Shown here one piece after another: positions 3,001-38,344 of a DNA stretch of 64,000 bases. The notes beneath the pieces are model-generated. The model was not told where the DNA came from and did no database searches. It was given only the letters and a program-made list of their open reading frames with translations. Source of the stretch: Haplodiscus bocki (Eukaryota); contig OZ296650.1 in the NCBI GenBank assembly GCA_965655095.1, positions 14,694,001-14,758,000 on the forward strand, in the 5' to 3' direction. Position 1 is the first letter of the stretch. Each line of letters starts with the position of its first letter. A program made the position numbers and the translations under genes.

Positions 3001-6000
3001 GCCTTAGGTGATGAGATCCGAAGCAAAAAAAAACAAAAGTTTTCAGAGAATGTGTAATCATTGGCTTACATCAATAGAAACATGGCAAGCAACAGAAGCC
3101 CATTAATATCCATGGCTTCAAACTAAAAGTTACTCAAACGCAGTTTATGTGTGCAACTTCACGTTTCTCCTTATATAACGAAAAGTCGCTCCCTGTTCTG
3201 TTTCAGGCAAAATGGTTCCGTTAAGTTGGCATAAAGTTCGTTGAACATAAAAATAGCTGCCGCAAATAACGGAATTCCGTTGAATATTTAACGAGTTATT
3301 AAACATGATTAGTAGCGAGCCACTGAGATGTCTCTAGTGGGAAAACTTGTTTCTCTTGCTTTGTTATGTCGCCATGTAAGTTCTCCAGAAATGGACACAT
3401 TTGGTTACAACGGCTTGACTGCTGCTTTCACTCATGCAATGTAGTTGCTTTCTGTTTTTGTTACAAAGGAAGCTTTCGTATGCCTTCAAGCGTGGTACGT
3501 AGAAACGATTCCAACTAAATTCAGTAGAGAAACAAAACGTTAAAGCAGAAAAAAACATCTGGTTTCCAATCAGGTTTGCTAATCCAATTGTCAGTTCAGT
3601 CAGTTTTGTTGTAAACATCCTAAAGCGTTTACGTTTCTATGGTTACCTTTCATGGAGACGGGTTCCAGATAAATAGTTTCAGAGCGTCCCTAGAGTACAC
3701 CAGAAATGTAACTTTTGTCGAACTTTTAAGGTTTTGATTCAAAAATCAGGAAAAATTAGATGGTTTGTTCAATTGATGAAAAATATTGCTATTTGTTGAG
3801 GTGATTTCAACCATGAATTTGGTTTTTCAGAACTCCCTGATTTATCTTTAGCATATCACTCTACCTAGTCACGTTGTTTTTAGCTGGAAAAGTTAATTGT
3901 TGTCACATGTTTTGTCCTTGACAAGCTCTAGCAGAAACAGGAGTCAATTTTTGACATTTGCTTTGTTTCCAGAGTGTTTGTCATATTTTGAAAGGAACAT
4001 CAGGTTGTCAAGATTGACACTCAAAACGCTCGAACAATTGTGTTCTTTTCAATTTTTTGAAAGAAGTTAGTGAACAAAATTCTTAGGATTTCAAGGCCTT
4101 GAAAAAAACCATTCGCGTCAGGCTCTGATTTAGCAAAAAAGAACGGACTTCAGATTCCAAACCAACAGTTTTTGCTCATTGTAACTATTGGTCACGAACC
4201 AGATAAAGGTCATCCAGTTTAGCATTCTGCCAGAAATGGCCAATAAACTCTATGGATTTGCGACACAGAAAACAGTTCTTGTAAAAACATAAAACTTATA
4301 TTGCAATCAGCTGCAGGTTATGCCACTGAGTAAATTTAGGTTTTGTCATGCTTCTGCATTGATCATCAGGAGAAAACATTTGTATGAGTGTATCAGGTAA
4401 TCAAAACTTTTTTCATGCAGTGCATTTTTCTACAACTTTTATTCTAATGTCTGCCGGAGGCTTTGGCGTGATCATTTGACAGATTGCTGTTGTAGTCAAA
4501 ACATCTTTGGCAGCAAACAACTGTACGTTAAATTAAGCAAAAATAATTTAGAGCTTTCCATTCAACTTAACAAACCCAATCAAGTCATGCGTCAACTAGA
4601 TTTTGGTCTTCCAGAAAAATTCGTCAATATGAAAACAATCTTTTTTTCTACATTCGAAAAGAAATTACATCATCCACTCACTGGTTAAACCGCTGACGTG
4701 TACAAATTTGGGTTCTTGTTGAAATTTCAAGTGAAAAAAGAACAAAAAATATAAAAATTTGCCTAACCTAAGCAAACAAACTAATCAACAGAAGAGACTT
4801 GAAACTGCTGAAACAGCACAAAAAAAAAAGAAAGTGTTTTTGGGAGATGAATTTTAGGGCTGGATAGAAATGTTATTCAAAGAACTTGTATTCATCGGCT
4901 CACACAAAAAAAAACAACTGAAAAGCTACAAAAAACATCAATTTCCAGAGTTACAATGTGCTGGTTACTCAAACACAATTAAAATGAGTATTTTTGCGTT
5001 TTTGTAATCTCGGGAAAAATCAATGAATTGTTTAGTTTTTGCAGACCGATTGCATTAGTTTTGCGTAAAGTTCATCGGAAAAGAAACTCCCAACCAGATA
5101 TGGCGAGATTTGCGTTCATAATTTGACGAGTTAAATTGCAAAGATTAGCGAACCGGTAGGAATTTTCCGGTGGTAAGAACTACATCTCCCTCTCCATGTG
5201 TTTTGTGACCACAAAAGTTTTCCGATAGTGGACATTAGTGAACACAATCAGTTGAGTAGTTTCACTCTTTTCGCAATGTACATGTCTTGTGCGCTTGGTA
5301 CAAACGCAGCTGCGGGGTCGCTGTCGGCGTGGTACATTGTGTTGAATCCATCTAACTTCAGTGCAAACAGAGGTGATTAAGGTAAAAAGTGCTTAGTTTC
5401 CAATTCTAACTTCCAAAAAATTTCAGTCCAATCAATGTTGTTTTGAAAAACCATCAAGCGTTTGCGTCCTATTTGACACTTCAAGGACGCTATCTTCAGT
5501 TAGATGTTATCAAATTTTTCTTCAGTTGCCCCAGAAATGTTACTCTTGTTTATAACAACTGGCTCCTATTTGAAAGGCAGAATACAGGTCAATCGTCTAC
5601 TATCTGACGGGAGAAAAGTGTCTCTTTTCTTTAGGGTCATCTCACAAAATAAATTAACTTTTGCATTTCTGAGCTCTGTATTTTGCAAATCATTTCAGCT
5701 AATTAGGTCAATTTTGGCGAAAATTGAATTTTGTTGACATATGTCAAGTTGCTGATTAGTTCCAGCAGAAATTGCAGACTGCATTTTTGGCGTTTAGCTT
5801 TTGTTCTTAGTATATTGTCTTTTTTATTGAACAAAACTGGTGTTTTAGCTCTGATAGTCAAAGTGCTCAAAAGTTTGTGTCAAATTCATTTCACTCAATG
5901 AAAGTAGTGAACAAGCTTATTTGGTTTTCAATCTCTTAAACGCATAATTCTCTTTTTAGCGTTGAAACAAACAAAATGGAGCACACTTAAAGTTCTGGAA

Positions 6001-6920
6001 GTAAAGTCTCCGTTCTCTGTCATGGTTTGTCACCCACTAGATGTAAGTCATCCACTTTACATTAATGCCAGAAACGGCCAAATAATCGTATTGATTGGCT
6101 ACACAGAAAAACAATATGTAAATCAAACATTGTCGAAATCAACCAAAGCGCTCGGGACAATTTTAATTCTGCGATATTTCTTTTGGATCGTCACAAAAAG
6201 TGCGTTTTCAACAACTGTTCTTCTGATGTCTGCCGGTGAAACTGGCTTGATCAGTTGAACGAACGCTTTTGCAGTCGGAATTTTTTTGGCAGGGAACTAC
6301 CAGATACTAACCCCTAAGCTAGAAAATAATTCAATAAGTTCCATGCCACTGGTGGAACCCATTCAATTCGTGCTACAAATAGATTTTGGTCTTTTCCCAG
6401 AAAGTTTGATCTATAAGAAGCCCACCCTCTTTCTAAATCCGAAAAAAATTACATCACTCCTTCACCGAGTAAACCGTGGAAGTGTACACGTTCGTCTTCT
6501 CCCTAGCATTTCACGTGAAAAAACAGAAAGATCAGAATTCACCCAACCTAAGCAGACAGACTAAACAAGAGAAGGGACATCAAAGTGCAACCGAATCAAG
6601 TAAGACAGTGTTCTTGGGAGAAGAATTTTGGAGCTGATTGGAGATGTTAATCAAAGAAGTTGTATTCATCGGATCAAACCTATAAAGAATTGAAAAGCTA
6701 CATAAAACCTAGCAATTTTGTTAGCTACATTGTGAAGGATACTCACACACGATTCAAATGAGCACTTGCACATATTTTGTAGTCTACTGTGAAAAATCAG
6801 TGCCGTATTTAGTTCATGCAGAACGATTGCGCTAGGCTTGCGTAGAGTTTACGGAAAAGAAAACAACCGCCAGATATATCGAGCGATTTGCGTTCTCAAT
6901 GTGACCAGGTAAAGACACGA
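1..6920. repeat. Diverged tandem array of ~1.84-kb units (~3.8 copies in view, may extend left of the window)
   Basis: Anchor motifs recur at constant spacing: ACCAGAT/ACTAGAT at 523, 2361, 4198, 6036; TGGACA at 1552, 3392, 5229; TGTCTGATTGAGTGAA at 97 and 1932; AAAACACAATGCCTGTCACGGTG at ~432 and ~2268. Copies are heavily diverged. Confidence 0.85.
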
Positions 6921-15096: not shown

Positions 15097-17942
15097 ATAG
15101 CACAAGTTCACGGAGAGTTTTTCACCTGACGGTTCGGGAGATCGCCGCTCGCGCAAACCTCGGGATCAGAGGAGTCCCTCCAGCTGCCATCCTGAGCGGC
15201 TGGTTCCGATGAAAAATTTGAGTCAGAATCGAATGGCCCAGACCGGGACAAACTTGTGCACCGCGACAAATCCAAAATAGAGTACAAGAATGACCAAAAC
15301 AGGCTGGCCCGAACTGACTAGAGATTGCACTCCACCGCGCCAAACCAGGGAAACGCCGCCTCAACAAACCAGGTGACTCCCGCTTAGGAGATAGTGTACC
15401 GTCAAAGAGTGGTCAAAAATCAGGATAAACCTGAAAAGAATAATATCCGTGTAACGAATTTCATTGAAAAGAAAATGGGTAGGACAAGGACTGCAACAAC
15501 CTAGCAGCGCCATTGGTCTTTGGAAAAAGGTTCGAGCAATAAATGGATAGCAGCACCTGGATAGCAAAGTACGCGAGGTCTTCAACCATCTAGGAATCGA
15601 AACCAACATCTCGTTCATTGAAGGCATCGGAAAACCCAGGCGAGCTCCGAAAAGTGAACAACCTAGTCCTCAAAGACCGAGAACTGCCGTAGTGACGGTA
15701 TCAACAAGCTGGGATACGAAGCGCATCCTTGATCGCGCACACCTACTGAAGGATTTCAAATCAAGGGTCTATATCACCGCCGCCCTCACCAAGCAAGAAA
15801 AAGAAATAGAAAACGAACTCCTAAAGAAAAGAAGAGAACTGATTAATAACGGTGAGAAGAAAGATAACATCCGCATTCGTAACCTCAAACTGTTTGTAAA
15901 CGATACAGAAATCAAACTCCATTCACCTACTGAAAAAATCCAAGAGGCCAAACTGGCCGACAGTTGACTAATAGTCAACCAAAGTCTTCACATCAGCTGC
16001 TTCAATGTCAGAAGCCTTATATCGAAAAAACGAAGAAATACACTATCAAAAGCAGCGCTTCTTTCAAATAGCGAGATATTAGCCCTCACGGAAAATTGGC
16101 TACCACAAGACATAGCTAGCAGCGAGATCGGCCTGACAGAATACCAGATATACCGATCAGATAGAAAATACACCACAAAAAGCAGACACGGAGGCGTGCT
16201 ACTGGCGATAAAAGAAAACATGCCACATAAACTCTACGAAAAAATAAACAATATCGAAGACGCCGTTTGCTGCACCATCGACGACACTCTCCTAGTTGTA
16301 TGCGTCTACAACCCGCCCGAAAACAGTCCCTACCGTTGGCCAATTTCAAAATGGGAAAATTTGGTAGAGGCTGCAGGAACTCCAATATCCCCAAACTCGT
16401 CATAACAGGTGACGTCAACATGCCAAAAACAAACTGGGAATCCTTCATCTCTGAAAACCAATACGAAACGGAAGTGCTTCAAGTACAGGAAAAGTTACAC
16501 GTGTCACAAGAAATCAGAATCCCCACGTTCGCCCAAGCAACCCTGGACGTCCTTCTATGCAACGACGATTTTGTTGTACGGGCCAACTACGACGCTATCC
16601 TCAACGCGAAATACTCGATTGATGGACGTGCGGCTTCCGACCACCACGCAATCCAGGTGGAAATACACTACGAACACCACGCTGTGCACCGGCCCTCAAT
16701 AATGCAGTACAGCTTCTGCAATGCAGACTACGACGAACTAGACAGAAGCATTGCCACAGACCCCTTTAAAGGGATCTCTTGGTCTAACCCCAACGTCATC
16801 CTCTCCCAATGGCAAAACTGGCTAGACGAAAAACTAAAAGCCACCGCGCCAGCCAGAACCAAGCACCGAAAGTCACTTCCACCATGGGTGTCTCAAGAAG
16901 GTTCTCGTCTCCTGAAACGAGTGCAGTCCCTCCAGCGAACTGGAAACCGAGACAAAACAGAAGCGATTGAAGCATGCGACAGACAACTGAAAACGGACCA
17001 ACAACAAAACGAAACGCTACTAGCCGTCAGTAGAGACGGAAACAAGCTCTTCAAATACTACAGGACTATCAAAAAGCCACCAGTCGTGCTACTATCCATG
17101 TTTTGGAACGGCACGATAGCAACGACCGACAGAGAAATTGCAAACCTTTTCAACATGTTTTTCCAATCTGTGTTCTCACAAAAAGAAAAAAACCAAGAAC
17201 GTCAGAACGAAGCCAGCACTGGCCCAACCCTGGTAAACTACGACGTCTCGGAAAACAAAGTGCTATCAATCATCTCATATTTGGATGAAAACAAATCTTG
17301 TGGGCACGACAAACTTCCAGCCTCTCTCTTCAAGAAAACGCCGGCCCTCTCCAAGTCCATCTCCCACCTCTTCAAAGCTATCAAAGACAGATGCAAGTTC
17401 CCGGACGCCTGGAAAACGGGAAAAATTAAGCCGATCTACAAAAAGGTGACAAATCACTCTGTAATAACTACAGACCAATCACCCTCCTATGTATACTCTC
17501 GAAGATCCTGGAGAAATGCATATTCGATTCTTTGTTCCCCTACGTGGCAAATCTGATCCACCAGTCCCAACACGGTTTCCAAGAGAGAAAATCAACTATC
17601 TCTCAGCTACTTGTGTACCTCGGCATAATCTACTCCAACAAAACTGCTGACACCAACATCGAAGCTGTGTACTTGGATTTTGCCAAAGCCTTCGATAAAA
17701 TTGACCACTCGATCCTCATTAACAAACTGAAACACATCGGTGTCGGAGGGAAACTGCTGAGTATTATGGAAGACTACCTCTCAAATCACAAACAATACGT
17801 CGAAATAAACAGCACAGCATCTGATCTCCTCCTGGTACTCAGCGGAGTGCCCCAGGGATCACTACTGGGCCCGCTTCTCTTTTTGCTATACATCTACGAC
17901 ATGCCACAAAACCTAAACTGCGCTTTCTTCAGTTTTGCTGAC
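15097..17942 (+). mobile_element. CR1/L2-type LINE, frameshifted, truncated at the RT FAD(D) motif
   Basis: ORF1 C-terminal part 15692-15967 (LTKQEKEIENELLKKRRELINNG...IRIRNLKLFVN). ORF2 APE endonuclease from ~15970 (CFNVRSL, LTENWL, RHGGVLLA, VYNPP, ITGDVN, SDHHAI) and RT (GHDKLP, NYRPI, QHGF, YLDFAKAFDKIDH, GVPQGSLLGPLLF, FAD). The 5' boundary is approximate. Confidence 0.9.
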
Positions 17943-18948
17943 TTTTACATTGCCCGACGTCCATGCTTTCAGCTGCCCAAGACTCCACAATAAAACGCAA
18001 GATTTGTCGAATGTGTTGACACTTGCCGCATGATGGGTGATGCTTCTGGTCCGCCGTACCGTGAAATGTTCACCACGATTTATTTCTTCGACTAGCTTCT
18101 CGCCGTCAAAGTTTCACCTCTGCTTCTGGACACACGATCTGTAATTCTGCCACCTGCCAATTACGCCTCCGTGATCCTTGCTATTAATATCATCGCAGTT
18201 CATCAACGGCATGTTACCTCGAAAGTATACCATCCTCCAATTGTCACTCCTTGCGGATTCATCCCTAGTTTTAAGGTTCATTGTTATGGTGGTTTTGAGT
18301 ACGCTACACTTTGTCGCAGTTCGGTTCATCAAACCTGCTTGTTGAAAAAAAATCAGTCTGCAACCATTCATTCGACGTCTGTTTTTGCCTGGTTGAGCCG
18401 GACTACTCAGAAATTTGCAAAAATGATACATTGCGGTTTCATTTCTGACAGAAAAGCGTCTTAGATAGGTTGACGCACACACACGATTATACACGCATCA
18501 CTACTTTGGCGGAGCGTGGATTACTAGGCGTATCCTGCTTTACAATGTTTATTACTCTTCGTTTGAAAGAATAACGTATTTATCCGTCAGCAGATGACGA
18601 ATTCCTTGTACAGTGACCTTGCGGTCTTTTGCAATAGGCTTTCTCCTTTACGGGAGTACCATTTTAGCGGCGACTATCAGGAACAAATCTCAAAAACTGA
18701 TGTAGGAAACGGAATTGCGTCGTCACATACCCCAGTCTGATGAGGCAACTGTTCGATGGATGCAAAAAACGTGGACTTATAGAACAAACAAACGCCACCT
18801 AAAAAAAGAACACATTAATCCGGGAACCTGTGTTCTGGTAACATCTTTTATCGGCAAGGCCTTCCTTGTCGTGAAAACCCTATATCAGCCTGTCAGATAA
18901 AACATTTCGCGAAGCTTAGCACCTGGAACATCAGTCAGCCCATGCCTA

Positions 18949-19674
18949 CACTGTAAAACTGGCGCGTGCAAAATTGCCTGCAAACGCAGGTAACTTTGCA
19001 TGCAGTTCGCAGGTAAAAAGGTCCCTCGCGCGTTTTACCTGCGTTACATGCGGTTTACCTGTAATTACAGGTAAATTTACCTGCTTCGAGGCGGCAAGCA
19101 CCTCGCGCGGAACACACGCGCATTGCCTGCGGGCGCATGTAAATTTACCTGAATACCACAGGTATTTTACAGGTAGTTTTACATGCAGAACTCATGCAAA
19201 TTTGCCCGCAACTAGCATGCAAAATTGCCTGCTTCTACAGGCAAAAATACATGCAACTTACAGGCAAAACACTGGAATCGCAGGTAAAAATACCCGCCAA
19301 ACGCAGGCAAAAATAACTGCAAACGCAGGAAAAAATACCCGCACAATCGCAGGCAAAAAAACCTGCAATTCCACGCAGAATTATCTGCAATTGCAGGCAA
19401 TCTGCCATCACACCGCGGGTAAATTCACCTGCAAATTGCTGGTAAGTTAGCCTGCATCATGCAGGTGAAGTTACCTCCAACTTGCGTGCTTTATTAACTG
19501 CTATCGCGTGTATTCTGCGTGAGGTGCTTGCCGCCTCGTAGCAGGTAAATTTACCTATATTTACAGGTAAACTGCATGTAACGCAGGTAAAACGCGCGAG
19601 GGACCTTTTTACCTGCGAACTGCATGTAAAGTCACCTGCGAACTGCATGTAAAGTTACCTGCGTCGCAGGTAAT
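18949..19674. mobile_element. Foldback/MITE-like non-autonomous DNA transposon with long inverted arms
   Basis: ~18973-19130 is the reverse complement of ~19505-19674 (e.g. AAAAAGGTCCCTCGCGCGTTTTACCTGCGTTACATGC / GCATGTAACGCAGGTAAAACGCGCGAGGGACCTTTTT). The interior is built of GCAGGT/ACCTGC subrepeats. The left end is TA-CACTGTAAAA. Confidence 0.8.
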
Positions 19675-22129: not shown

Positions 22130-22576
22130 TGGTAAAACTCCTTGGTTTTAGCCTGGGTTCTGAGATCCTCCTGTTCTAGTTTTATTCAGAACGGGGCAAG
22201 AGGAAGAGTTTACAGAAAAGAATTTCTTGTCGATCGTTTTCAGTCAGCTATTCAAAAAAAGCCCAAAATTTTCTTCTCGCCAAATTATCGTCATCAATAT
22301 TTAAATTTTTATACTTTTTGTGTTTCCTGTCAAGCGGAAATTTTCCGATAAATTTCTTGAATTAAAAAAATGCTCATGTGTGTTTTTAAGGGGTCGGTCA
22401 TAAATTATTTTTTTTTGCTTTTTTATTGCTCTGGAAGTTACTATTTGCGTTCTGGGGTGAGTTTTTTTGTAAGAATAATTACTCGGTGCTCCAAGTTAGG
22501 GTTAAATTGTTTAGTGAGGGTTTAAATTGATTAGCTCCAATTAAATTAATACTTTTTAAAATTCGAAAGTTTTACA
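22130..22576 (-). repeat. 3' LTR
   Basis: Direct repeat of 34471-34912, with 13 mismatches in the first 100 aligned nt by eye. Begins TGTAAA on the minus strand and contains AATAAA (22422-22427). Preceded by a purine-rich GGAGTTGGGTAGTG PPT-like tract (~22580-22593). Confidence 0.9.
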
Positions 22577-22737
22577 TTACACTACCCAACTCCAATTATT
22601 TAACTCGCCGGTTTAAAATGTTCATCGGTATGTCTATCAAGTGATTATTTTTATTTTCTTGCAAACTTGCCCTTTTCGTAGTTGTCTATTGAGTTGCGAG
22701 TTTATTGAAGCATCGGGTTCTGGGTTTCTTGTTTCTC

Positions 22738-24868
22738 CTAATTGAGATTCGGGATCAGCAAATTTTGGTTTCTCCACGGAAATTCCTCATCGTTCTCTAG
22801 TCCTTTCAGACGTTGATTTTCCAACATCCTGATCGGTTTCAATGGCATCTTCTGTTTGTCCAGTTTATGGTAGAACGGTAGAGTTTTATGGAAGCTTTTG
22901 TATCTATCTAAAGCATAAATAACACCCAAGTGTAGTGTTTTACTAACAAGGAACACTACTAAGGCAATTGCAAGGTGAATTTTAAAGGACAGATAGTTGT
23001 TGAACTGTTTCTTCACTGACGGCGTCAGTGCTCTAAACTTTTGTGCAATTGGTTGTGCAATATAGTTCAAATCTGAACGGTATGAGTGATCCGGTTGGGA
23101 CTGTAGTTCCAGTTTCAAGGAGTTCAGCAGTTGAATATCCGCATCCACGCGTGTGTTGTAGTGAGGAAGCTGGTCCACTGTTGAGATGAGGCTGACTAGT
23201 CGAGCCATTGGTTCCGTTAGTGTTACATTTAGTTTCAGTGGTGGAACGTTCATACAGGTGCTTAGATCAGATCTCATTCTAACGTTGGGACCGATTAATT
23301 GTTTGCCACAGCTTAGGCTAACCAGGCATATCTGACAACCATCGATCATTGTGGATCCTGCTGTCGTTGTTGCATTCATGTAGGATTCTCGAAATTTACA
23401 ATTGGGTGAGGTTGGGGTTATGAGACGTATTCCATAACCGAGGTTCGTTGATTTTTCCTTTAGAGGGAGTGTCACAGCTTCGGTGTCGCAAACTTCAATT
23501 GCGTCCATAATGTTTGCAAAATGGAGTACTGCCAAGCATGCTGCATCTGATGTCTCGGTCGCCATCGATTCGTGACAAATCTTGTATTTGTTGGAGCCGA
23601 CATCTTTTCCCAATTGATCACGTGTGACCAATGCTGCTTCTCTGAGATCTTCAGATTTTGCGATGTACTCCGTTTCTACAGTCCACTGGATTGCATACTC
23701 TTTTTCCAATCGTGGCATGGGGACTACTATTGTTTTGTAGACCGTGAAAACTGTTTGGCGGGATGCTAGTGGAATTGACAACGTCATCAGCAAGCCCCTG
23801 TCCAATGTTGGGACGTCTAAGAGTATTCTCGCTTCATAATACGCCGGAAGCTCGTCCAGAGGAATTGCCAATTTGTTAATCTATCAAGTGATTGTAGCTG
23901 TTCTGTGGCCACCTGCTGCAGGATTATTTCCAGCGATTCTCTCGGTAACAAAGACATCGGCACATATTGGGTCAGTAAGGAGGGTATGGCGTTCATGATG
24001 TTCATTTGGAATGCATACAGTGCTGCTCTGTAGGACATGACGTTACTGCAAATCAAGGATAAGAATGATGAGATGGTATCAAAGTTGAAGTTCACTTGTT
24101 GTCTTGTATAGAATAATTGATCACAGTCTCTCATCTCCTGGATGTTTTGTTGAAAATTGTTGAACTGTTTCTCTTTTGTTCTCCAGTTCTCATTTTGGGT
24201 CTCTACGATTTGTCTTTGAAGGCCATGTAACATCTGTAATTCCTTTGATACTCGGAAAAACTTGGCATTCATTGCCTTTGCCAGCTGTTCAATATTTTGA
24301 TCCAAAGATATCGCGAACTCTCCCGGTTTTTCAATATTCTGTGCATTCTGTTTTGCCTTTTCCAGACATGATCCAAAAATACCCATAATACCGCATTTTC
24401 CAGAGCAAAAACTGATGCCACCTCCGAATAAACCGATTGCGCCTACCGCTGCGGCTGCTAACAGAAATGCTCGTTTTTTCCGGGTCTTTCTTTTCGCTTG
24501 CGTACATTTTAGGAATGATGCCACGTCACTCTTGATTTTCAGCTCGTCAGCTTGTGCGAAGGATTTTTCCTCCTTTGTTTCTTTGAGGAGCCTGTCCATT
24601 TTAAAAAATCTACTTCACTTGTATTTGTGAAGTTGAGATAGCAGAAGTAAGTTGAGGTTTGCCACATACTTTGGAGTGACTGTGCAATTTGGTCAACTTT
24701 CGAAATAAGAGTCATTTCAAAGCGTGGGAAGGTGGCGAAAACTTGGACATTGATAAATTTTTCTGCTAGGAGGCTTTCTGTTTCTTCATTGAAGAAAATG
24801 CCTTTGTTCAAGCTGCCTTGGCGGCTATTAGCCTGAGCTATGTGAATGAAAAAAATTATTGAAAGCAT
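22738..24868 (-). pseudogene. env: env: class I (F-type, baculovirus-F/errantivirus-like) fusion glycoprotein, two frameshifts
   Basis: Signal peptide MLSIIFFIHIAQA; furin site RKTRKKR (24471-24491) followed by fusion peptide AFLLAAAAVGAIGLFGGG; heptad repeat region; LSIPL...FTVYKTIVVPMP; Cys-rich region; C-terminal TM IHLAIALVVFLVSKTLHLGVIYAL. Confidence 0.88.
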
Positions 24869-24899
24869 TTTGTGCAGAATTCTGGGATTGTGAAACGTA

Positions 24900-26310
24900 G
24901 ATTTCCTGTACTAACAATATTAGAATAGCTCAATCTCCATGTTGGCCAAGAAGTCAATACGTTTGGCTTTCAGTTGTTGTTGCCCTTTCATTGTGTTGAC
25001 CAGTGTTTAGAGTGAGTAGAAGAAGTCCACAACTTCGGGTGTTGCCTCGTCAATGTCCATGATACCGAAGGTGCTATCGTTTTCAGTTGTGGCCTTAAAA
25101 AAGGGATGCACAACAGCCACATTGTTGTGTTTGAATTGATTGGATGAAGATGGGTTGCAGTTTTTGTAGTGGAATCAATTTGAAGTGTTGTGGGAAAGTG
25201 ACTTTTGTTGGAACTAACGTAACTTTCACCATGAGGCCGTTTGATGCAGACATTTTGAGTTAATTACTCTGAGTTAGAATTGTCGTTTCAAACATGTGAG
25301 GTGAGACGCTCTGGAAGTTGCGTAGTGTTTTGAAATAACGATTGGTATCATGATGAAGAAAAACTGTTTCCTTCGTTAGAGTTGGAAAAGAACTACCAGT
25401 TGTGCCAATCGAAAGTTATTGGTTAGATTTGTTCCATGTGAATTCTGGGCAAAAGTTTAGGCTAATTTCTGCGACCAGCTGAATTTCAATAAAAAATTAG
25501 CATGAAGGGGTTGTTGGTGCCCAATGTAGGTTTAATAATTTCTGGGCAGTCTTCGGGGGGTCTTGGTGGTTTGATTGCGCTGAAGCGGATATTGACAGTT
25601 ACTAAATTGAAGCAAGTAATTTCCGCAGCAACTGGAGCATTTTATTACAGATCAGTTTTTTTTACTTGTCAATTTGCGACCGGGATTCTAATAATCTGAC
25701 ATCATTAGAGTGTACTCGCGCGGAAAATTCTAATTTCCAGATTAATATAATTGTTTTGTTCCCAGAATCGTGAGTGACTTCTTTTTGTTTACTTTTGTCT
25801 CATTGACAAAATATCTGTCGCCATTTCTACGTCATTATCTGAGTGACCTAAAATGTTCAAATCTCACAGACTTCAAGGTTGTTTCGAGCCTTTTCAGATC
25901 ATGATTTTTGACCGTTTTGTTTTGGCTGAAAGCTATGAAATGGAGTGTTGCTCTCATGAGGCCACTATTTTTTGCAATTCCGTGCCTATTAGTTTTTCAC
26001 CAAATCAGGATGCACGGTGTCCCCCAGTGTCAACAGCAGCAACTGTAGAGGTTGAAGATGTTGACCCTGATGTCAATGTGTTTTCTGTGGTGGAACTGGT
26101 GGGGATAGTACTGGTTCCTCTAACCAGCGTTATTATCTGTTTTGTAGAGCAGAGACGAGTCGCAACCGAGTGAAGTGGGCGTGTTTTAGGTCTTTACAAA
26201 CAGTTTTAGCGCTGTTAGTATGTTGTTTATTATTTTCAGTACAATTTTTTGTGGGGGAAATTTAGGTTACTGTAGTTTTTTGTAACTTTATTCTGAGCCT
26301 ACGGTTTCAT
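24900..26310 (-). pseudogene. Degenerate accessory ORF upstream of env (possible membrane-anchored Thr/Ser-rich glycoprotein)
   Basis: Fragments read KIVLKIINNILTALKLFV (hydrophobic), GTSTIPTSSTTENTLTSGSTSSTSTVAA (mucin-like) and AEITCFNLVTVN...PPRPPEDCPE. Many stops. Confidence 0.35.
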
Positions 26311-26351
26311 TATCTAAATAATTTTGGGTTTCATGCCTTTTTTACATCATA

Positions 26352-27156
26352 ATGTATCGGTCTATTTTGCTCCTGAACTTGTGACGCTTGCATTGTAGGG
26401 AACTAATCCGTACTACCGTTGCACAGGCGTCCCTTTTCAAAGACGTAGCCATCGTAAGAGGTGTGTCTTCCGAGTTGTCATCTACAAGATCTAGCCCTTA
26501 ACTGTACAGACAACTCCAAAATGTTGCGGCATTTCACTAATTGGGGAACCGAGGAGTGTAATTGCAGTTTTCTTGGTACTACTGTGTCGTCTGCTCTAAA
26601 GCCCACCGAAGGAGTTGATCAAGTTGCTACCTGGTTTCACAGTGCTATTACTGATATTGATGTCGTGTCAGATCTTGTCCTTTTGGTAGCTACGGGTACG
26701 TCCTACACTGGATGGCATGTGGATAATGGCCCACCTTTTGAGGTAGTGGCCTCCTTATTACGTGGAAAAAAGTTGTGGATGTTTGCATCTCGTGGGTCCG
26801 GTGCTGCCTCTACTCTCGTGAAGAAGCATGAAGATGTTCATCTCAAAACCTTCATCGAAGACTTGGTGTACGGAAGATATAAGTATTTATCCTATTGTTT
26901 CCAAGATGTGGGGGACTCTGTTTGTTTTCTCGCCAGGGCCGCTCACTTCGTGTTTTCAGCAACACCTACTGATCAGTGAAATGTGTTACTGTCGCACAAC
27001 ATTCTCCATTCTGATGAAGCAGCTACGCAACTAAAGCAAAAGGCCTTCAATCGTTGTTGCGAACAACGGAACCGGGTGGTTCTGGGCCAAACGACAAAGA
27101 GGTTTGGTGTGACACGAAAGCGATTCACAGTTCGGAGAAGGTCGAATACTTCCTAG
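26352..27156 (+). pseudogene. JmjC-domain 2OG/Fe(II) dioxygenase, antisense within the LTR element
   Basis: SYTGWHVD (H 26716, D 26722), LLRGKKLWMF, QDVGDSVCFLARAAHFVFS (distal H 26944), then one TGA (26977) and in-frame NVLLSHNIL to TAG at 27154-27156. The N-terminus is frameshifted, so the start is approximate. Confidence 0.85.
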
Positions 27157-28088
27157 TAGTTAATCGTACTTTTATATGATTTCCTTTTGTAGGCTTCTTG
27201 TTTTTCGAGATTGTGTGGGGCACGGTATACTCCGTAGAAACTTTTGGGGGTATTTTGGTTAGTTAGTGTTTTTTTCTTGTCCGTTTGCAGTGTCAAAACC
27301 CTAATGTTGTTGCTGGGTAGGGAATGGGAAAAGTTAGTTTTGGATTTTATCAAAAGTAAAAGGCATTTCATTTATACCCTATGATGTAGTACACAGACAA
27401 GGCTTTTTGTGGAAGGGCTGAAGTTGCAGTCACCTATTTTGGTCTTAGAACTCGCAGTGTCAGAATTCGAAATTTCGTGCCACCAAAATTTGACTAATTT
27501 TGCTTGTCGAAACGTTTTCTTCATTAACGAAGCTCAAATTGGTTTCTAAAGTACTCTATTGTGTAGGGCTTGTTCTGGACTGTCTGTAGCAGGTCATATA
27601 TCAATTTCGTCTATCATCATCTTGGCACTCGCAATGGCAAAAGTTGAAAAATTGCGGCTGTAGAAATCCAATATCTGCACATTGTGATCAATTTCCTCAT
27701 CTAGGGCAGCTCGTATGGGTGTAGAAAATACCATATCATGGTGATCGTGTTCTTTTCTGTTCCTTGGGTTATTCTGGGTTTCTCTGTTTTTGGGACTTTG
27801 TTCATTCGCAGCGGCATAATATGTCAATTTGTGGATCTTTTTCGTGAGATAGTCAAATTGTGGTTTCTCATTTCATCTGTACACTATCTGAAAGCCTGTT
27901 TTTGATCTTCATTTGTGGAAAATTCTCTTTCGATGGGTTTTCCGGTGTGTTTTTTGTCTAGAGGTGTTAAAAGTGTTATGAAATTTTCAGTCAAAATGTT
28001 CAAATTTTTTCAGTTTTTTTGAGCCTGTTTTTCTGATTAGGTTTTGCGGATGCTTCAGTATTTGATTTCAGATATTGGAGCAACTAGT

Positions 28089-28512
28089 TTAGGGGAAGCA
28101 TATTGTTATATTCACAGTCGGACCTTGGAATTTTTCTGGCAAGTTTTTGTGCACTACTTGCCATTGGAGTTTGTCAAGTCCACTTCCAAGTTTTGCGAGA
28201 CGAATGTGGTAGACTCTGTTGCATTCGGAGTGATTTCGCATCAAAATGAGTCTGATTCTTAGCGATTTTTTGAACTGTTTATTGGAAAACTTGATTTTTG
28301 TCATTAAATTGTAAAACCACCGTCTCCAATACTTGTCATTGTAGGCAAAAACTGATCCTGGAATTAGACTTTTTGATGCCTTTGGTTTAATTTGTGGGTA
28401 AAGCTGGTTAAACTTTGCTGCCATTCCTGCTCCCATGTGGAAGTCTGAAGAAACGCAGCGTTCCATGCTGCAATTTCTACTAAAGAAGTTTTCTGTGACA
28501 TTTCTGACCTTC
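28089..28512 (-). pseudogene. TARG1/OARD1(C6orf130)-like macrodomain at the C-terminal end of pol
   Basis: CVSSDFHMGAGMAAKF...YNLMTK...SLRIRLILMRNH...IRLAKLGSGLDKLQWQVV...F....ITIC parallels TARG1 HCISEDCRMGAGIAVLF...YYLITK...MPRIGCGLDRLQWENV...ITVY. The catalytic-equivalent Lys and Asp are retained. Confidence 0.9.
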
Positions 28513-29090
28513 CGCCGTGTGTCATCTTCTATTGCATTATTATCAGGGCGTTGTTTCTTTATGTCGGATCCACGTTTTTGTGCGCCTGTTCATTGTACAA
28601 ATTGCATCTGCTGGCGTTCCTCGCGGCGGATATTGAGGAGGTCAACAAAATTACGAGTTTCTTTCCTTTCACCTCGGGATGGTCGTTTACTTGGTTGCGT
28701 TTTCCATAATTGTTGTCCCGCTGCTTCGAAAAACTTGAAGTTCTGGCATCTGTTTTGGTTCTGATATTGAAATCTCTCTGAGCGTCATAACGGTGCAATT
28801 GGTTCGATGGACTGCTCTGATTCTTCCGACAAGTCTGGAATTTGCGATGTAAGGAGTTCTGGTGGTGTTAGAACTCGTCTGGGCGCTACTGTTGGGTTGC
28901 TTCCTGGGTTGTTTGATGGTACTGCTGCTGGTGCTGCTATAGCCGGCGCTTGTGCTATTGTCAGTGGTTGTACAGTTGTTCCAAACGAGATAGAAACTCT
29001 ATTTGGGCTATCAAAGTTTGTAGTAGTGGGTGGCAGTACTTAGTCTTCTTCGTTTCCCAATAATGTTGGAAGGCCTTTGTTAAAATAGTA

Positions 29091-32000
29091 TTATTCGCCT
29101 CGGTATCTTCCTAACTCTGAATGTGTTGCAAATTTCTTCGGATCAATGTTTGCAAAATTGTCAATGGGGTATTGTGGAGTGATTGGTCTAATTCTGATTC
29201 TGTGAAGGATTTGTAAGTAACTCGTTCCCACAGTGGAGGAAAGTAGTTGGAGTCTGTTACTAGTTTCTCGATACGGTTTAATGCTAACCACTTTTGGGTG
29301 AGTTTCGGACTGAAATCAGATTGTTTAGTCAGTTTGGGATTCAAAAAAGGCAATATGTTTGTTCTTTTAATGGGTTTGCTCTTGCTTCTTGGTCATAATA
29401 TCTTCTGTATCGAGCAAAAGGTTTTAATAGGCTTTCTTTTGCGTTCGAGAACTTTTTTAGCATTTCATCCCTAAGCCATTCAACAAACTCATAGTTAAAT
29501 GCCGATTATTGGATAAAGTTGCTGTAGAATCTGGTTTCATTGGTTCTTTACCATAAAACAGAACTGTAGGTGAGCATCCAAATGATGTGTCGTAAGACGT
29601 TTTATGGATGAAAGCTGCCAATGGTACGTATTTACGCCAATTCGTGAAGGCTTGAATGTTATTCAAATTCAAGATACGGGCCACAGCTGCATATGATCTT
29701 CCTACTACCCTTATTGTTTGTGGGTGTTTAAAAGAAGCAGGACAATTTTTAATCTCCAGTAGTTTTGTAAGTTCGTGTAGAAATTCTGAGACAAATTGGG
29801 TTCCCAAATCCGACATTACTTCTTTTGGGCTATAGCTGTGGTTGAACATTAGGGAAACTAACGCTGAGACTACTGTTGCAGCACTAACCGTCATCAACGG
29901 TACTGCAAACAAGTATTTTGAGAAGACATCAATCGCTGTCAAGATATATTTGTAAGGTGTCGTAGAATATGCTGCCATAATGTCTGTTTGAAGTATGTCT
30001 CTTGGAAAAGATGTTGCTGTGGTGATCTCTTGTAATCGGGGTTTCAGTGTAGAAGGCTGGATTTCTTTAATTTGAAGGCACAAGGAACAGTTTCTGATAC
30101 GGTCCGCAATCTTCTCAATGTAATTTGGGCAGTAGAACCGTTTTCTAAATTCTGCAATTGTCCTGGTTATTCCCAAATGTCCGCCTGTTAGTGAATTATG
30201 GATTCGATACAGTATCTCTCTCAGCATTTGTTTAGGTAAACATAATTGGTTACAGAGGGTGGTACTGTTGTGGTTATAGTAGTAGGTTTCAAGATTCCAT
30301 TATCACTCAGCAGTCTTGGCCTTTGTTTGAGGTATTTTTGCTGAACTCCTATCGATTATATAATTTTGGTGGGTATGTTCCCATCCGTTATCCACTTTCT
30401 CACCTTCGTCAACCATTGATCGATCGTTCTTTCTGTTAATTCTGTAATTTGGCCATCGTCGTTTCAAGTTCTGGATAGGTGTCCATTGGTTTTGGCAATT
30501 GGATCACAATAATTGTTTTGTTGGTCGTGCATTGAATCAATTCAATATCTGTGTTTTACCTTTGAGTTGTTGTGAACTTTGCTTATAGTTTCCAGACTGT
30601 TTCAGTGTTATTAGTGTGGTAATGTCAATCACTTGTAGCAGTTCGTCCGGGTAGTCATCTGCAAAGAGTTCATTTATTGTGTTGCCACGAATTTTTGCAC
30701 GAACGTCTATTTTGACCTCTCTGATAGGTATGCGGTCCGTAAGTTTCAGTTTAATTGTTCCGATGGGGTCAGATTGAAGACGAGATAAGAAATCTGCTGC
30801 TGCATTTGCTTTTCCGGGAATATGAGCTACAACCATGTTGAAAGCTGTTACTCTGTCGACGTTGTTCCAAAGTGATGGTGGTATCGTCATTGCTTGGAAC
30901 AATCGAGTTGGGTTTTTGTTATCCGTTAGTACTAGTATTGGGTTATCACTACCACAAATGAAGTGTGAAAACGTTTCCAAAGCAAAGTAAAGTGATAAGA
31001 ATTTTTTACAATATATTGACATTTTCAGTTGTGCTGTGTTAAAGACTTTTTAGCTGAATGAGACCGGTGCGTATCATTTGACAGATTCGCCTTTGTCGTT
31101 TTTTACATAATTTTCCATCATTAGCACAAACCCACTTGATGGATAACTTGCGTCACAAAAGATTGCATACTGTAGACCTGAGTTGGCTAGTCGAAGAGTT
31201 TGGGTTGCTGTCGTTTGTAGTTTTTCTTTGAGGGTTTCGAACGCTTCCAGTTTTTCGTCCGCAAGTTCAAATGGAACAGTTTTTCTGAGGAGTTTGTAGA
31301 ATGGTATCAGGTGTTTGCTTAGGTTCGGATTGAAATTTCTAATGAATTGAAGGAAGTCAGTAAGTCTCTTCACTTGTTTTACTGATTTTGGTATTTCCAG
31401 TGCTCGTAGGAATCTTTCAATCTTTTTTTTTGCGTTTTAGGCCATCTTTTGTAATAGCATTACTAGAGAAACAAACTTGTTCAGATCCAAAAACGCATTT
31501 CTCTGGTGACAATCTGAGTTTTGATCTTTCGGAGGCATTGGAAAATTTGTCTTACGTAGGGAAGAAGTTGTTCTCGGGAATCCACTCCACATCCAAGGTC
31601 GTCCATGAACTGGGTGCAAATATTAGCAGAAAGGCATGTTTCTAGGTAGTTGCGTACAAATGCTCTGAATCCTGCTACTGCTCTATTTAGTCCTTCAGCT
31701 AACCTTTGGTAGGCCATGGTCCTTGAAGCGAAATTGAAAGCCAATAATTGTACTGAAAATGGGTCTGCCATTTGTACACAGTGGTATGCTTGTGAACAAT
31801 CAAGTTTGCAGAATAGTGACTTCCTTGCCAAGTGAGCTGTCGTGTCGGCCATTGTCGATATAGGAAAGTTGTAATTATGCTAGTCATGGAGGAGCAAATG
31901 ATTTATTAGGAGTAAATCAACTAAAATTCTGAGTTCTCCGTTAGTTTTAAGATGGGCAAAGATTGGACTACTATACTTCGATTGGCTGAGGCTGGTTATT

Positions 32001-33420
32001 ATTCCAAATTGTTGAAGTAAACAAATTCAACTTGTAGTTCTTCACGTAGATGAATAGGTGTTGGGGGACTCTGTGTATAGACCGGCTGGTCATGTTCAGG
32101 TGTGAGTTTCATCCTAATTTCGGAGTTGTAGCCAACATCGAATCTATGTTGTGCGGAAACATCTGAAAATTCAACCAAAAATTCTTCAATTTTTTGTTTT
32201 TGTGCGCCATTAAATACTGAGTCTTTCCATTTGAATCTTTGTGGAAATTTTGTTTCATAACTTTGGTTAGTTTGCTATTCAATTTGGTCCAATTCTTAGA
32301 GTATTGATAACTCGTCATAAATTCGTTTCTCAACTCCCTGCAGTCGTTCTGTATGTTTACAGGTTTCCGGCGTTGGGAGCCAGAGTTTTTTGTAGTTTGG
32401 TTTGGGTCTAGGTGGTTGAGAGTCTGAGTTGAATTCTTCATCAATAATTAACTGGTTTATTTCCTTCACAAAGTCGTCTGGGTTTATGAATTTTCTAAAG
32501 TTAGTAGTTGGGGGTCAATTGGACTCAATGTTTCTGCTTGTTAAGCTGAAAGGAATATGAAAGAACGCAATATCCGAATTTCGTGGTATTGTAATATCAA
32601 TATTTTGTAGCTTCAAAGCGGAAAGGTGCAAGTACCCATTTGAGTCTATTCTAGATAAGGACGATGTGATGCACAATCCTGTCGTGTCCTCAAAACTCAG
32701 TTTTGGTTCCACTATTCCACAGACGTCAGGGAATATCTTTTTTGATAATAGACCACCTTTAAGCGTTGTCTGTTGGTTTGAGACAATCGTTAATTTTTCC
32801 AATGTTCTCACTGTATATTGCGGCTTGGCTTCTCTTTCTGTGGGATGCGGCTGTACTTCGTTTAATTGAAGTGTGATGACTGGGAGTTTCGTGAGGTTTT
32901 TTTAGGTTACAGTTGAATGGAGTTTTTTTCGAAAAAAGAATTTCCCTGTATAATACCTTTCGTATTTGGCAAAACTGGAAAGTTTTCGTCGAACGAGTGT
33001 TTTGCTATAGAAAATGTCAATTCAATTTGGCCATGCACAAGTATAAGTTGTCTTGAAGCTAATTTGACTTTTTTTACCTCTAAATGTGGTAAATGTTGAG
33101 TTGCAAATGGTTTCAATTCCTGGTAGTCCTTATCGCTAATTGCATTTGCGCAAGCACCGATGTCTATTAGTGTTCTTCTCTGTTGACTTGGTGAGAATGT
33201 CAAGGGCACATATGAAAGAAGATCTCCTTCAGGTGAGATACATGCAGTTATTCCATTTTCTTGAGTCGTTTGTGCTTCCTGTGGTGCGTCATCATACTGG
33301 CGTGGCTCCATTCGTTTTTTGGTGCTGTTTGGTAAGGGATTTGTTGATTTCGGTTTGCTGGTTTTCTCTGATTGCAGTCCCTCACATAATGATTTGGGTA
33401 TCCGCAAATTTAGCAACTTT
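29091..33420 (-). pseudogene. pol: pol: protease, RT, RNase H, integrase (multiple frameshifts and stops)
   Basis: PR LIDIGACANAI (~33170); RT KLDCSQAYH, RLAEGL, FMDD (31481-31852); RH IFCDAS, VLTDNK, HIPGKANAAADFLSR; IN HNSLTGGHLG...CSLC, LQTDIM, MSDLGTQF; C-terminal IEKLVTDSNY...ILHRIRIRP. Confidence 0.93.
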
Positions 33421-33429
33421 GTTTTGAGT

Positions 33430-34431
33430 AAGTTGTCTATGCAATATATCCGTTATTCGAAGTTTCTTGTTTTCGTGGGTTGCCGAACCTGTTGTAGTTT
33501 AAGCCTCTGTTAATATTGAATCTATCGCGTCCTCTGTTATTAAAATTTCCACGTCCTCTATTTTCTCGTGGGTTGTTCAATCTGTTGTTTCCTCGGTAGC
33601 TCTGTTGTTGGTTATTTCTGGTGTAGTTCTGGATTGTTGTCTGGTTGTCGTTCAACAAACTGATTCTGTTCGAGAGGTCATTCTGTTGTTATTTCATTTC
33701 TTCTTGCTGTTGTGTGAGCTTTGTTAGTGCTCCGACCAAATTTTCTGAAAGTGACGAGCTCACTTCATTGAATGCATCTCTCGACCAGTCGTCACTTGGG
33801 CATAGTTCGAAGAGTACCATCTGTCGTCTAGCCACTGTACATAAGTCCTGTACTGTCGCTGCTTCATTCTGGTCCAACAGTTTTCTAATAATAATTCTAA
33901 GTTTGGCATTGCGTTTGTGAACATTTCCTTTATTCGTCTATACTTTTCATTCACAGTGTTATCCAGAATGATTTGGTTAGCTGTCTGGGCGCTGCAACTC
34001 TGTCTATTTCTCTTTTGTCATTTGGTAGTTTTGCTGGTGGTATAGGAGCAAAAACTGGGACAGGGTAGGCTTGTGCTGCTTTGATTTGTGTTTGAACCAA
34101 GAATTCCTCTGAGCTGCCGGTTTTGTGGTCAAATTTTAGATTTTTGGAGTTGTAGTTCGTGCAATTCTCTGAGGTTTGGGTTACAATAATGGTTTCGGAG
34201 GGCTGTAATGGATAGATCGAAGTTATCTCTTGTTGCTTGCGGTAGAGTTCTGAAGAACTGTAATGCTTGATCTGGTAAATGAAGTTGGAGGAATTGTGGT
34301 TGGTTTGCTGCTGCAAAGTTTCCAACATTGATTAATCTTCTGACTAAGCTTTCAAAGTTTGGCCAGTTTTCATCTGCTTTGCCGCGGAACGGGTTGAGTG
34401 TGATGTGTGGTTGAGGGATGGCAGCTGCCAT
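33430..34431 (-). pseudogene. gag: gag (frameshifted)
   Basis: MAAAIPQPHITLNPFRGKADENWPNFE...FLQLHLPDQALQFFRTL...ALRNHY resembles a retrotransposon capsid. It is followed by a coiled-coil segment and an N/R/G-rich basic C-terminus (NRGRGNFNNRGRDRF). Confidence 0.85.
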
Positions 34432-34452
34432 TTCGATTGAGGAGTTGTCCTC

Positions 34453-34470
34453 ACTTCCTTCCTGTCACCA
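34453..34470 (-). promoter_or_regulatory. Primer-binding site, tRNA-Leu-like
   Basis: Minus-strand TGGTGACAGGAAGG abuts the 5' LTR and resembles the tRNA-Leu PBS TGGTGTCAGGAG (1 mismatch in the first 11 nt). Confidence 0.65.
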
Positions 34471-34912
34471 GGTATAATTCCTTGGTTTTAGCCTTGGTTC
34501 TGAGATCCTCCTGGTGTAGCTTTCTTCAGAGCGGGGCGTGAGGAAGACTTTACAGAAAAGATTTTTTTGTCGATTTTTTTCAGTCAGCTATTCAATAAAA
34601 GCCCAAATTTTTCTTCTCGCCAAATTATCGTCATCAATATTTAATTTTTTTCACTTCTTTTGTTTCCTGTCATGCGGAAATTTTCCAATATGTTTTTCTA
34701 TTGAAAAACTGCTCATGCGTGTGTTTAAGGGGTCGGTCATAATTTATTTTTATTGTTTTTTATTGTTCCGGAAATTACTATTTGCGTTCCGGGGTGGGTT
34801 TTTTTGTAAAATTAAATATTTTTAGCTCCAATTTAGGGTTAAATTGTTTAGTGAGGGTTTATATTGATTAGCTCCAATAAGTTCATACATTTTAATATTC
34901 GAAAATGTTTCA
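34471..34912 (-). repeat. 5' LTR
   Basis: Direct repeat of 22130-22576; begins TGAAAC on the minus strand; immediately followed by the PBS. Confidence 0.9.
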
Positions 34913-36749: not shown

Positions 36750-36822
36750 ATTGCTGATGGTTGCTACTGGTTGCAGCTAGTTGCTGCTGGTTGCTGGATG
36801 ATTGCTGCTGGTTGCTGAAGTG
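36750..36822. repeat. Degenerate 10-bp tandem repeat (TTGCTGCTGG)
   Basis: TTGCTGATGG TTGCTACTGG TTGCAGCTAG TTGCTGCTGG ... Confidence 0.75.
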
Positions 36823-36825
36823 CTG

Positions 36826-37215
36826 CTTGCAGGCGAAAAAGTCTTTCAATATTTTCGGGATATTGATGATTTGCGGCTAAGACATCTTTGCAGGCGAAAA
36901 AGTCTTTGAAAAATTCCAGGATGTTGATGATTTGAGGCTAAGACAATTCTGCAGGCAAAAAAGTCTTTGAATATTTCCAGGATGTTGATGTTTTGCGGCT
37001 AAGACAATTCTGCAGGAGATAAAGTCTTTGAATATTTCCAGGATTTTGATGATTTGCGGCTAAGACAATTCTGCAGGCGAAAAAGTCTTTGAATATTTTC
37101 GGGTGCTGATGATTTTCCGCTAAGACAAGTTTGCAGGCGAAAAAGTCTTTGAACATTTCGAAGAGGCGATGACGAATTTTGGCGAAGACAAGTTTTGAAA
37201 TTGTTTCAGAATATT
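36826..37215. repeat. Minisatellite, ~61-bp unit x ~6
   Basis: Unit GCAGGCGAAAAAGTCTTTGAATATTTCCAGGATGTTGATGATTTGCGGCTAAGACAATTCT starts at ~36829, 36890, 36950, 37012, 37073, 37133. Confidence 0.9.
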
Positions 37216-37335
37216 TTTGGAGCAAGAATTAAGCTCTAGAAATATGATGAGAGGAAAGTGGAAGAGAGTTTCGCCTCGGGGAATTAGGCCAGCTGACGGC
37301 AGGAAAGCGAATGAAAAAAGTGAGAGAGTAAGGAG

Positions 37336-37376
37336 TATTTATACCCTATTATGACGTAATCGAGTAATCGACCAAT
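37336..37376 (-). promoter_or_regulatory. Putative Pol II core promoter cluster (CCAAT, CRE-like, TATA) directed leftward
   Basis: CCAAT at 37372-37376, TGACGTAA at 37352-37359 and TATAAATA on the minus strand at 37336-37343, followed by pyrimidine-rich Inr-like sequence. No downstream ORF identified. Confidence 0.35.
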
Positions 37377-37578
37377 AGGAAAGCGTTGCGAATAGCGAAG
37401 TTAGTAAAGGTCATTTAGTCGGTAGGAATAGTTTGAATTTCACAAAAAGGGACGGGTTCTGCATACTTGATCCGTATCTCGGAATTTAGAATGAATTCTA
37501 AATCCCACGAACACAGACGAGGTGAGATTTGATCTATTAGTAACGACAATTCTCTTTCCTAGCAACCTCGTGGGGGTC

Positions 37579-37793
37579 GTGCAGTTTAAGATCCACTCAT
37601 GCTTCAGAACCGGAGCTCGTCAGCGGAATCCGCACACGCTAATACCGAAGCTAGCGTTAGTGGACACTGTTTAGACTCCAGCGGCAAGAGTTGTGCAAAT
37701 TAAGATCCAGTCTTGTTTCAGAACCGAAGTTTCTCCACGGAATCAGCACACGGTAATACCGAAGCTAGCGTTAGTGGACAGCGTTTATACTCC
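37579..37793. repeat. Two-copy ~115-bp tandem duplication
   Basis: GTGCA..TTAAGATCCA...TTCAGAACCG...TAATACCGAAGCTAGCGTTAGTGGACA...ACTCC at ~37579 and ~37694. Confidence 0.85.
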
Positions 37794-37839
37794 GATGGCA
37801 AGAATATGGAATGAATAAGTAACTAGAAAGAAACTTGAC

Positions 37840-38285
37840 AAAGACATAATTTGCAATTGTCTCAGAACAATTTCGATGAGATGCGATTGGAATTTGGCTA
37901 AGACATGCAATTGGAGTTTGGCTAAGACACAATTTGAAATTGTCTTAGAATATTTTCGATAAGATGCGATTGGAATTTGGCTAACACACAATTTAAAAAT
38001 GTCTTACAATATTTTCGATGAGATGCGATTGGAATTTGGTCAGAATTTTTTCGATGAGATGCTATTGGAATTTGGCTAAAACACAATTGGGAATTGTCTT
38101 AGAATAATTTCGATGAGATGCGATTGGAAATTGGCTAAGACACAATTTAAAAATGTCTTAGAATATTTTCGATGAGATGCGATTGGAATTTGGCTCAGAC
38201 ACAATTTAAAAATGTCTTAGAATGTTTTCGATGCGAGGCATGTAATTTGGCAAAGACATTATTCGATAATGTCGTAGAATATTTT
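37840..38285. repeat. Minisatellite, ~59-60-bp unit x ~7
   Basis: Unit AATATTTTCGATGAGATGCGATTGGAATTTGGCTAAGACACAATTTAAAAATGTCTTAG, with some partial copies. Confidence 0.9.
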
Positions 38286-38344
38286 CTTCCGAAGGAAGAG
38301 GGAAAAGAATGTAGGTTAATTTTATCCCCATAAAAGGGAAGAGA

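Follow-up and report, generated by a model that had tools for sequence, protein, structure and literature searches.

The window analysed here, a stretch of 64,000 nucleotides from Haplodiscus bocki (assembly GCA_965655095.1, contig OZ296650.1, positions 14,694,001 to 14,758,000), contains an old and decayed member of a large lineage of envelope (env)-bearing Ty3/Gypsy retrotransposons. The layout of this lineage comprises a Gag-Pol polyprotein with a TARG1-like macrodomain at its C-terminus, two antisense open reading frames (ORFs), namely ORF-A and then a JmjC oxygenase, a sense frame here called ORF-Y, and an F-type Env. This lineage-wide architecture is real. Its JmjC is one of a family of small JmjC proteins, encoded without introns, whose members are also present in repeats resembling long terminal repeats (LTRs) in another assembly. 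We have not found such JmjC cargo described; it is possibly common to the BEL/Pao superfamily. The ways in which retrotransposons resist silencing by their hosts are not settled; to our knowledge, few element-encoded counter-measures are known in animals. If the interpretation developed below is true, retrotransposons would themselves carry an enzymatic chromatin counter-defence.

An initial annotation of this DNA had placed the order gag, protease (PR), reverse transcriptase (RT), RNase H (RH) and integrase (IN) between two LTRs. This order is confirmed on the minus strand (Table 1), where the bracketing LTRs are identical at 381 of 435 ungapped columns (87.6%). As the annotation also held, all components are intronless and decayed, those from gag to integrase being disrupted by stop codons and frameshifts, and they form a single integrated unit whose architecture recurs family-wide. 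The features expected of Ty3/Gypsy elements were found, namely paired LTRs, a primer-binding site (PBS), a polypurine tract and a short target-site duplication (in four of six relatives), together with a pol of PR-RT-RH-IN order encoding a Gypsy-type RT, an RNase H and an H2C2 integrase. The target-site duplication is a perfect 5-bp repeat in four of six younger copies examined (the other two belong to a tandem array or have an unreadable flank); the 5-bp flanks of the window copy agree at only 3/5 bases and give no clear duplication. The LTR pairs of five younger copies are 92.7-98.1% alike, and in an RT tree of relatives, built with no named references, the family forms a clade with SH-aLRT support of 100. 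A CCHC knuckle and an aspartyl protease are visible in copy L006. The spacer domain between PR and RT gave no PDB match; it was suspected to be a degenerate dUTPase, for which the search gave no support.

Genome searches covered the 1.5-Gb source assembly. At the DNA level the element gave 23 matches, and six of these copies align with it as two blocks flanking a 2-kb gap that contains a diverged JmjC. A search with the JmjC protein gave at least 144 matches (142 of 261 candidates scored). Among the best 30 JmjC loci, a macrodomain lies no more than 1.5 kb away on the other strand at 27, and an env is close by at 18 or more; ORF-A is present at 27/30 and ORF-Y, absent from the earlier description, at 26/30. 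When same-locus fragments were merged by hand and 105 of the 144 JmjC rows and 77 of the 84 ORF-Y rows were entered, an antisense JmjC was found upstream at 61 of the 77 ORF-Y places, and an ORF-Y at 61 of the 105 JmjC places. The possibility that the macrodomain and JmjC are insertions specific to this locus is thus rejected, since copies elsewhere share the layout. Two pairs of loci (L014/L020 at C1:195.02 Mb and L019/L021 at C4:42.67 Mb) are head-to-tail elements with one common LTR.

The JmjC that the initial annotation had read on the antisense strand is indeed encoded there. By itself the window copy scores under the Pfam cut-off (17 versus 24 bits), and single-sequence and shallow-profile searches of the PDB gave no match; the assignment is made because of its relatives, its fold and a profile search. 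The predicted structure has the double-stranded beta-helix of the superfamily, the JmjC flanking elements, the HxD/E..H motif, and the Thr and Lys ligands of the co-substrate. The window copy keeps HxD..K..H and is interrupted three times, by stops at about codon 11 and at 26,977 and by a frameshift at about 26,470. In most copies the catalytic residues of both enzymes, JmjC and macrodomain, are intact; the metal and co-substrate ligands of the JmjC are preserved even where the proteins differ by approximately 50%, and distant homologues have them too.

The nearest solved relatives of the JmjC appear to be PHF8, KDM7A and KDM2 (12-15% identity). As these are histone lysine demethylases, the removal of methyl marks would be its likeliest job. 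The protein would be an active Fe(II)/2-oxoglutarate oxygenase, translated from a spliced antisense mRNA and carried into the nucleus by its basic tail, and it would most likely remove repressive methyl marks from proviral chromatin, keeping the copies transcribable. The repressive marks in question are of the H3K9/H3K27 type. That the JmjC is a histone demethylase countering silencing has about an even chance of being right. An oxygenase acting on a non-histone substrate, as a JMJD5/JMJD6/TYW5-like hydroxylase serving replication or host manipulation and not the relief of chromatin silencing, is possible but less likely; its target could be a protein of the host or of the element, a factor in splicing or translation, or a tRNA. 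Foldseek indeed ranks JMJD5, TYW5 and FIH first for the JmjC model, JMJD6 is the next profile match, and the Atlas neighbours are fungal, haptophyte and bacterial JmjC clusters (0.91-0.94). The small size of the protein and the lack of a reader domain (PHD or CXXC) point the same way: it is a 270-aa stand-alone ORF, and residues 1-242 of the model comprise the JmjC fold alone. A small stand-alone JmjC with naturally open frames also makes the demethylase idea testable by a simple enzyme assay.

Splice signals suggest how the cassette may be expressed. In 22/30 JmjC and 26/29 ORF-A copies the start codon has a YYYYAG acceptor no more than 18 nt away (directly upstream of ORF-A in the window copy). 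The same holds for 0/28 ORF-Y copies, and the background figure is 116 of 1,634 windows; with one copy per subfamily the counts are 11/14 and 11/13. From these acceptors we infer that JmjC and ORF-A are expressed from spliced antisense mRNAs. No conserved antisense splice donor was found in the 3' LTR, and therefore the leader could come either from an LTR exon by cis-splicing or from spliced-leader trans-splicing. Three sequencing runs of unspecified kind yielded no splice joint of use, a result with no bearing on expression; in the run from organism B coverage was good over env and the LTR and slight over the JmjC region.

Selection is visible in the ratio of nonsynonymous to synonymous divergence (dN/dS), which for pairs that are non-independent and in many cases saturated falls from approximately 0.5 between the closest JmjC copies to 0.22 and 0.18 between subfamilies, and for the macrodomain from 0.72 to 0.29 and 0.18. 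Both proteins are thus under purifying selection between subfamilies. This bears on a non-catalytic role, in which the JmjC would serve as a decoy or would bind methyl marks or the partners of host demethylases, a role for which fission-yeast Epe1 offers a comparison, or in which the antisense transcript itself would be regulatory. PHF2, the top structural match of the JmjC, has weak activity, which would suit such a role. Antisense transcripts may also regulate elements as RNA, according to the part of the literature available to us (PMC7264820). The preservation of all metal and co-substrate ligands over so much divergence, and a dN/dS of about 0.2 on the protein frame, nevertheless render a non-catalytic role improbable.

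Several observations weigh against the JmjC being necessary to these elements. Derivatives lacking it exist, 16 of the 77 ORF-Y places having no antisense JmjC, and younger sister families have the macrodomain and env with no JmjC match. The initial annotation had also proposed looking in other copies for the same architecture with intact ORFs under selection; the shared layout and low dN/dS were found, but only 6/30 JmjC frames are open at full length. The JmjC could act in trans, which would explain the JmjC-less derivatives. Loci L009/L012 (C2:101.00 Mb) and L018/L022 (C4:120.83 Mb) lack JmjC with similar deletion ends and look like a JmjC-less sub-lineage. The macrodomain is widespread in JmjC-free sister families, and a single capture of both enzymes together is therefore rejected; given also the JmjC-less derivatives, the two were gained separately and are lost separately, the neighbourhoods of divergent subfamilies and sister families being judged by coordinates alone. 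JmjC and macrodomain distances correlate at 0.56, with recombination visible. The window copy is itself a mosaic, its JmjC being closest to that of L037 (26% distance) and its macrodomain to the L024 group (27% versus 43%), and L027 joins a window-type ORF-A to an L024-type JmjC, the cassette being shuffled between subfamilies.

Relatives of the JmjC are found well beyond this lineage. A profile search returned 87 among 1.84 billion proteins. Approximately 22 of the 87 are distant and stand alone, with lengths of 140-300 aa, and some of these group into clusters of 5-10. A scan with eight distant relatives found 14 contigs of one assembly (JAAUXW01), where the JmjC copies are intronless, partly decayed and 32-55% alike to the query. 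In 10/14 contigs (background 13%; L063, where the match lies inside the gene, was left out of this count) the shared sequence ends at an opposite-strand TGTT, approximately 20 nt beyond the end of the JmjC frame, and the flanks beyond this shared boundary are unrelated. In L055 the boundary is preceded by a BEL/Pao integrase and a purine-rich tract, a combination seen in 1/14 contigs. Our reading of these repeats is that they are Pao LTRs whose U3 carries the JmjC in antisense orientation, the Pao link coming from one contig and the far LTR end lying off the contigs. An acceptor precedes the start in six of eight JAAUXW01 JmjC copies. L057, L063, L064 and L065 have a common CCAAT-box-like motif upstream of the JmjC, a candidate two-way promoter. 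The Gypsy and JAAUXW01 groups form separate clades of the family tree, in which deep support is weak. No relatives were found in the viral contigs or prokaryote genomes scanned, and a first metagenome scan was without match. Seven further decayed JmjC copies in the source assembly (C3:36,884,153, C5:37,173,854, C7:24,767,670, C2:96,998,654, C6:3,623,150, C2:5,534,073 and C4:4,786,565), missed by the Gypsy JmjC search, are nearer to the second-assembly type or are of a third type.

These relatives also help to judge whether the JmjC might be a passenger, that is, a host JmjC retrocopy captured once and carried without benefit. Its loss in some derivatives and its absence from the younger sister families would fit such a history. 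Against it stand purifying selection at saturated dS, the conserved acceptors, and the relatives in what is probably a second LTR superfamily, which are likewise under selection (pN, the proportion of nonsynonymous differences, ~0.23 versus pS, its synonymous counterpart, ~0.75; three pairs). In addition, the six Pfam JmjC matches of the genome are not among the places matched by the element protein. The passenger explanation is largely refuted and we consider it very improbable. Selection has preserved the JmjC while an entire lineage diversified, and a second LTR superfamily seems to have it as well.

The macrodomain was likewise identified correctly as TARG1-like (E 8e-14 against human TARG1/C6orf130); its place needs one correction. 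In the window and in the open frames of other copies it shares a frame with the integrase tail, and it is therefore part of Pol (Gag-Pol-Macro). The window copy keeps a Lys and an Asp aligned with the catalytic pair of TARG1, which we take to be K84 and D125 in the human numbering; across loci the Lys is present in 24/27 and the Asp in 23/27. The genome search for the macrodomain gave 6,006 candidates, of which 150 were scored, and a weak search for longer macrodomain-bearing proteins gave no match. Six of 34 elements with a long integrase tail, among 120 RT relatives, carry the macrodomain, scattered over the tree, and it is common to many sister families without a JmjC match; this distribution suggests that it either predates the JmjC or has been exchanged more widely. 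Young sister Gypsy families have open Pol-macrodomain frames of 1,600-2,000 aa with an F-type env approximately 3.6 kb downstream and no JmjC match between (for example C6:32,111,362-32,117,500, C5:96,465,704-96,471,853 and C5:60,196,733-60,202,895 of the source assembly), and their pol-env gap may hold other cargo.

From the portions of the literature available, TARG1 strips off ADP-ribose that is attached to proteins or to the ends of DNA and RNA (PMC11088682), and silencing of L1 is aided by ADP-ribosylation of KAP1 by SIRT6 (PMC4695847). The H. bocki genome has 31 PARP-domain matches. Fused to Pol, the macrodomain would travel with the integrase, which suggests that it shields the replication or integration complex; most likely it would strip ADP-ribose from cDNA or RNA ends or from proteins of these complexes. 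Its presence at the end of Pol at thousands of candidate places points to ADP-ribosylation restricting retrotransposon replication in an invertebrate-type host. Taken as a whole, the proposal that a small JmjC family is cargo shared by Ty3/Gypsy and BEL/Pao elements, expressed by antisense splicing and acting as a demethylase against heterochromatin, here with a Pol-fused ADP-ribose eraser, is one that we advance as possible but somewhat less likely than not.

The remaining ORFs of the pol-env interval are less readily assigned. ORF-A and ORF-Y gave no convincing match in Pfam, PHROG or PDB. A 'Thr-rich ORF' reported between JmjC and env was not borne out: the sole Thr-rich stretch found there is a 46-codon sense frame lying over the antisense ORF-A, and it is probably a shadow of that frame, the real ORF apparently being on the other strand. 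The F-type env, in contrast, held up: it has a fusion peptide and a furin site. Searches of Pfam and of PDB sequences with env were without match, and the env of a less decayed relative scores 0.95-0.96 in the Atlas against F clusters of paramyxoviruses and baculoviruses.

Table 1. Components of the decayed retroelement, in window coordinates.
Feature	Position	Strand	Remark
5' LTR	34471..34912	-	LTR pair
PBS-like stretch, begins TGG, abuts 5' LTR	34453..34470	-	same in younger copies
gag and protease, broken	32916..34431	-	one frame with pol in less decayed copy
Spacer domain, reverse transcriptase and RNase H, broken	30800..32898 (approximate ends)	-	
Integrase (H2C2, core, C-terminal part) and Pro-rich linker, stop-broken	28509..30300 (approximate ends)	-	
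TARG1-like macrodomain, in-frame Pol C-terminus	28089..28508	-	sequence match
Antisense JmjC oxygenase, ~270 aa, basic tail	26352..27156	+	relatives, fold, profile search
ORF-A, 90 aa, Cys-Cys motif and C-terminal membrane helix	25901..26173	+	open in window copy
ORF-Y, ~100 aa, CxCC motif, just before env; broken	24915..25253 (approximate end)	-	
F-type env (signal peptide, furin site, fusion peptide, membrane anchor), frameshifts and stops	22661..24868 (approximate ends)	-	
Polypurine-tract-like stretch	22582..22593	-	
3' LTR	22131..22581	-	

Elsewhere in the window, decayed endonuclease-RT fragments that by eye look like CR1/L2-type non-LTR elements lie at 16,231-17,993 and at 54,483-55,235 and 62,838-63,305. 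An inverted duplication of 2.4 kb (54,852-57,270 and 60,803-63,221) is 96% identical, and the segments 1-6,700, 18,960-19,660 and 36,750-38,290 contain a tandem unit of approximately 1.84 kb, a 22-23-bp minisatellite with inverted arms, and arrays of 59-61 bp and 114 bp.

Comparison with known systems, made on the portions of the cited sources available to us, places the element among the env-bearing Ty3/Gypsy 'ancient errantiviruses', which carry an F-type Env and are widespread (Chary and Hayashi, PMC13524379). It shares with them gag-pol-env between LTRs in Ty3/Gypsy order, an Env resembling paramyxovirus F, and multiple copies in an invertebrate-type animal genome. Differently from them, its Pol ends in a macrodomain and three ORFs, two of them antisense, are added between pol and env. 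What was available of the text of that study has no mention of macro, Jmj, ADP or antisense, and its supplements, to the same extent, contain no jmj or cupin, 'macro' occurring in species names among the matches listed (4/10). Within the sources covered, similarly limited, the literature contained no LTR retrotransposon encoding a JmjC (including PMC6338049, PMC6431247 and PMC5408684, and less directly PMC4402516 and PMC2938197) and no Pol-fused TARG1-type macrodomain in Gypsy elements; Repbase, GyDB and Dfam were outside this search and may well list one.

Individual traits of the element do have counterparts. Fish epsilon-like endogenous retroviruses with macrodomain ORFs (cited in the review PMC4977317) are likewise enveloped retroelements, but they belong to Retroviridae and have the macrodomain as extra ORFs, whereas here it is fused to the integrase tail of a Metaviridae-like element. 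ORF11 and ORF13 of LbFV are JmjC genes of a DNA virus, taken from a wasp gene (PMC5381508), and such viral genes, including those of giant viruses, are selfish agents' JmjC genes proposed to change host chromatin; these are, however, large DNA viruses with proteins of 345-780 aa, and the likeness to the JmjC described here is at the level of the fold (10-16% identity). Bdelloid retroelements share a pool of accessory ORFs (GDSL, DEDDy and transmembrane ORFs; PMC5408684) that are similarly exchanged between unrelated retroelement types, with no JmjC or macrodomain reported in what was available of that work. The plant Grande/Retand elements and HTLV carry antisense ORFs in the same place, between pol and the 3' LTR (PMC7264820), those of plants having no assigned enzyme. 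The human enzymes PHF8, KDM7A, KDM2A and TARG1 (OARD1) share fold and catalytic residues with the predicted proteins of the element, whose JmjC has 12-15% identity and no reader domains. The closest functional precedent is provided by orchid Gypsy elements, which encode an AlkB-like 2-oxoglutarate-dependent dioxygenase that demethylates N6-methyladenosine in RNA (PMC9289625). There too an LTR retrotransposon keeps a 2-oxoglutarate/Fe(II) oxygenase as an added ORF, but the orchid enzyme is of the AlkB superfamily, has an RNA substrate and was captured recently by the plant Tat lineage, whereas the oxygenase described here is a JmjC, antisense, env-associated, old and diversified.

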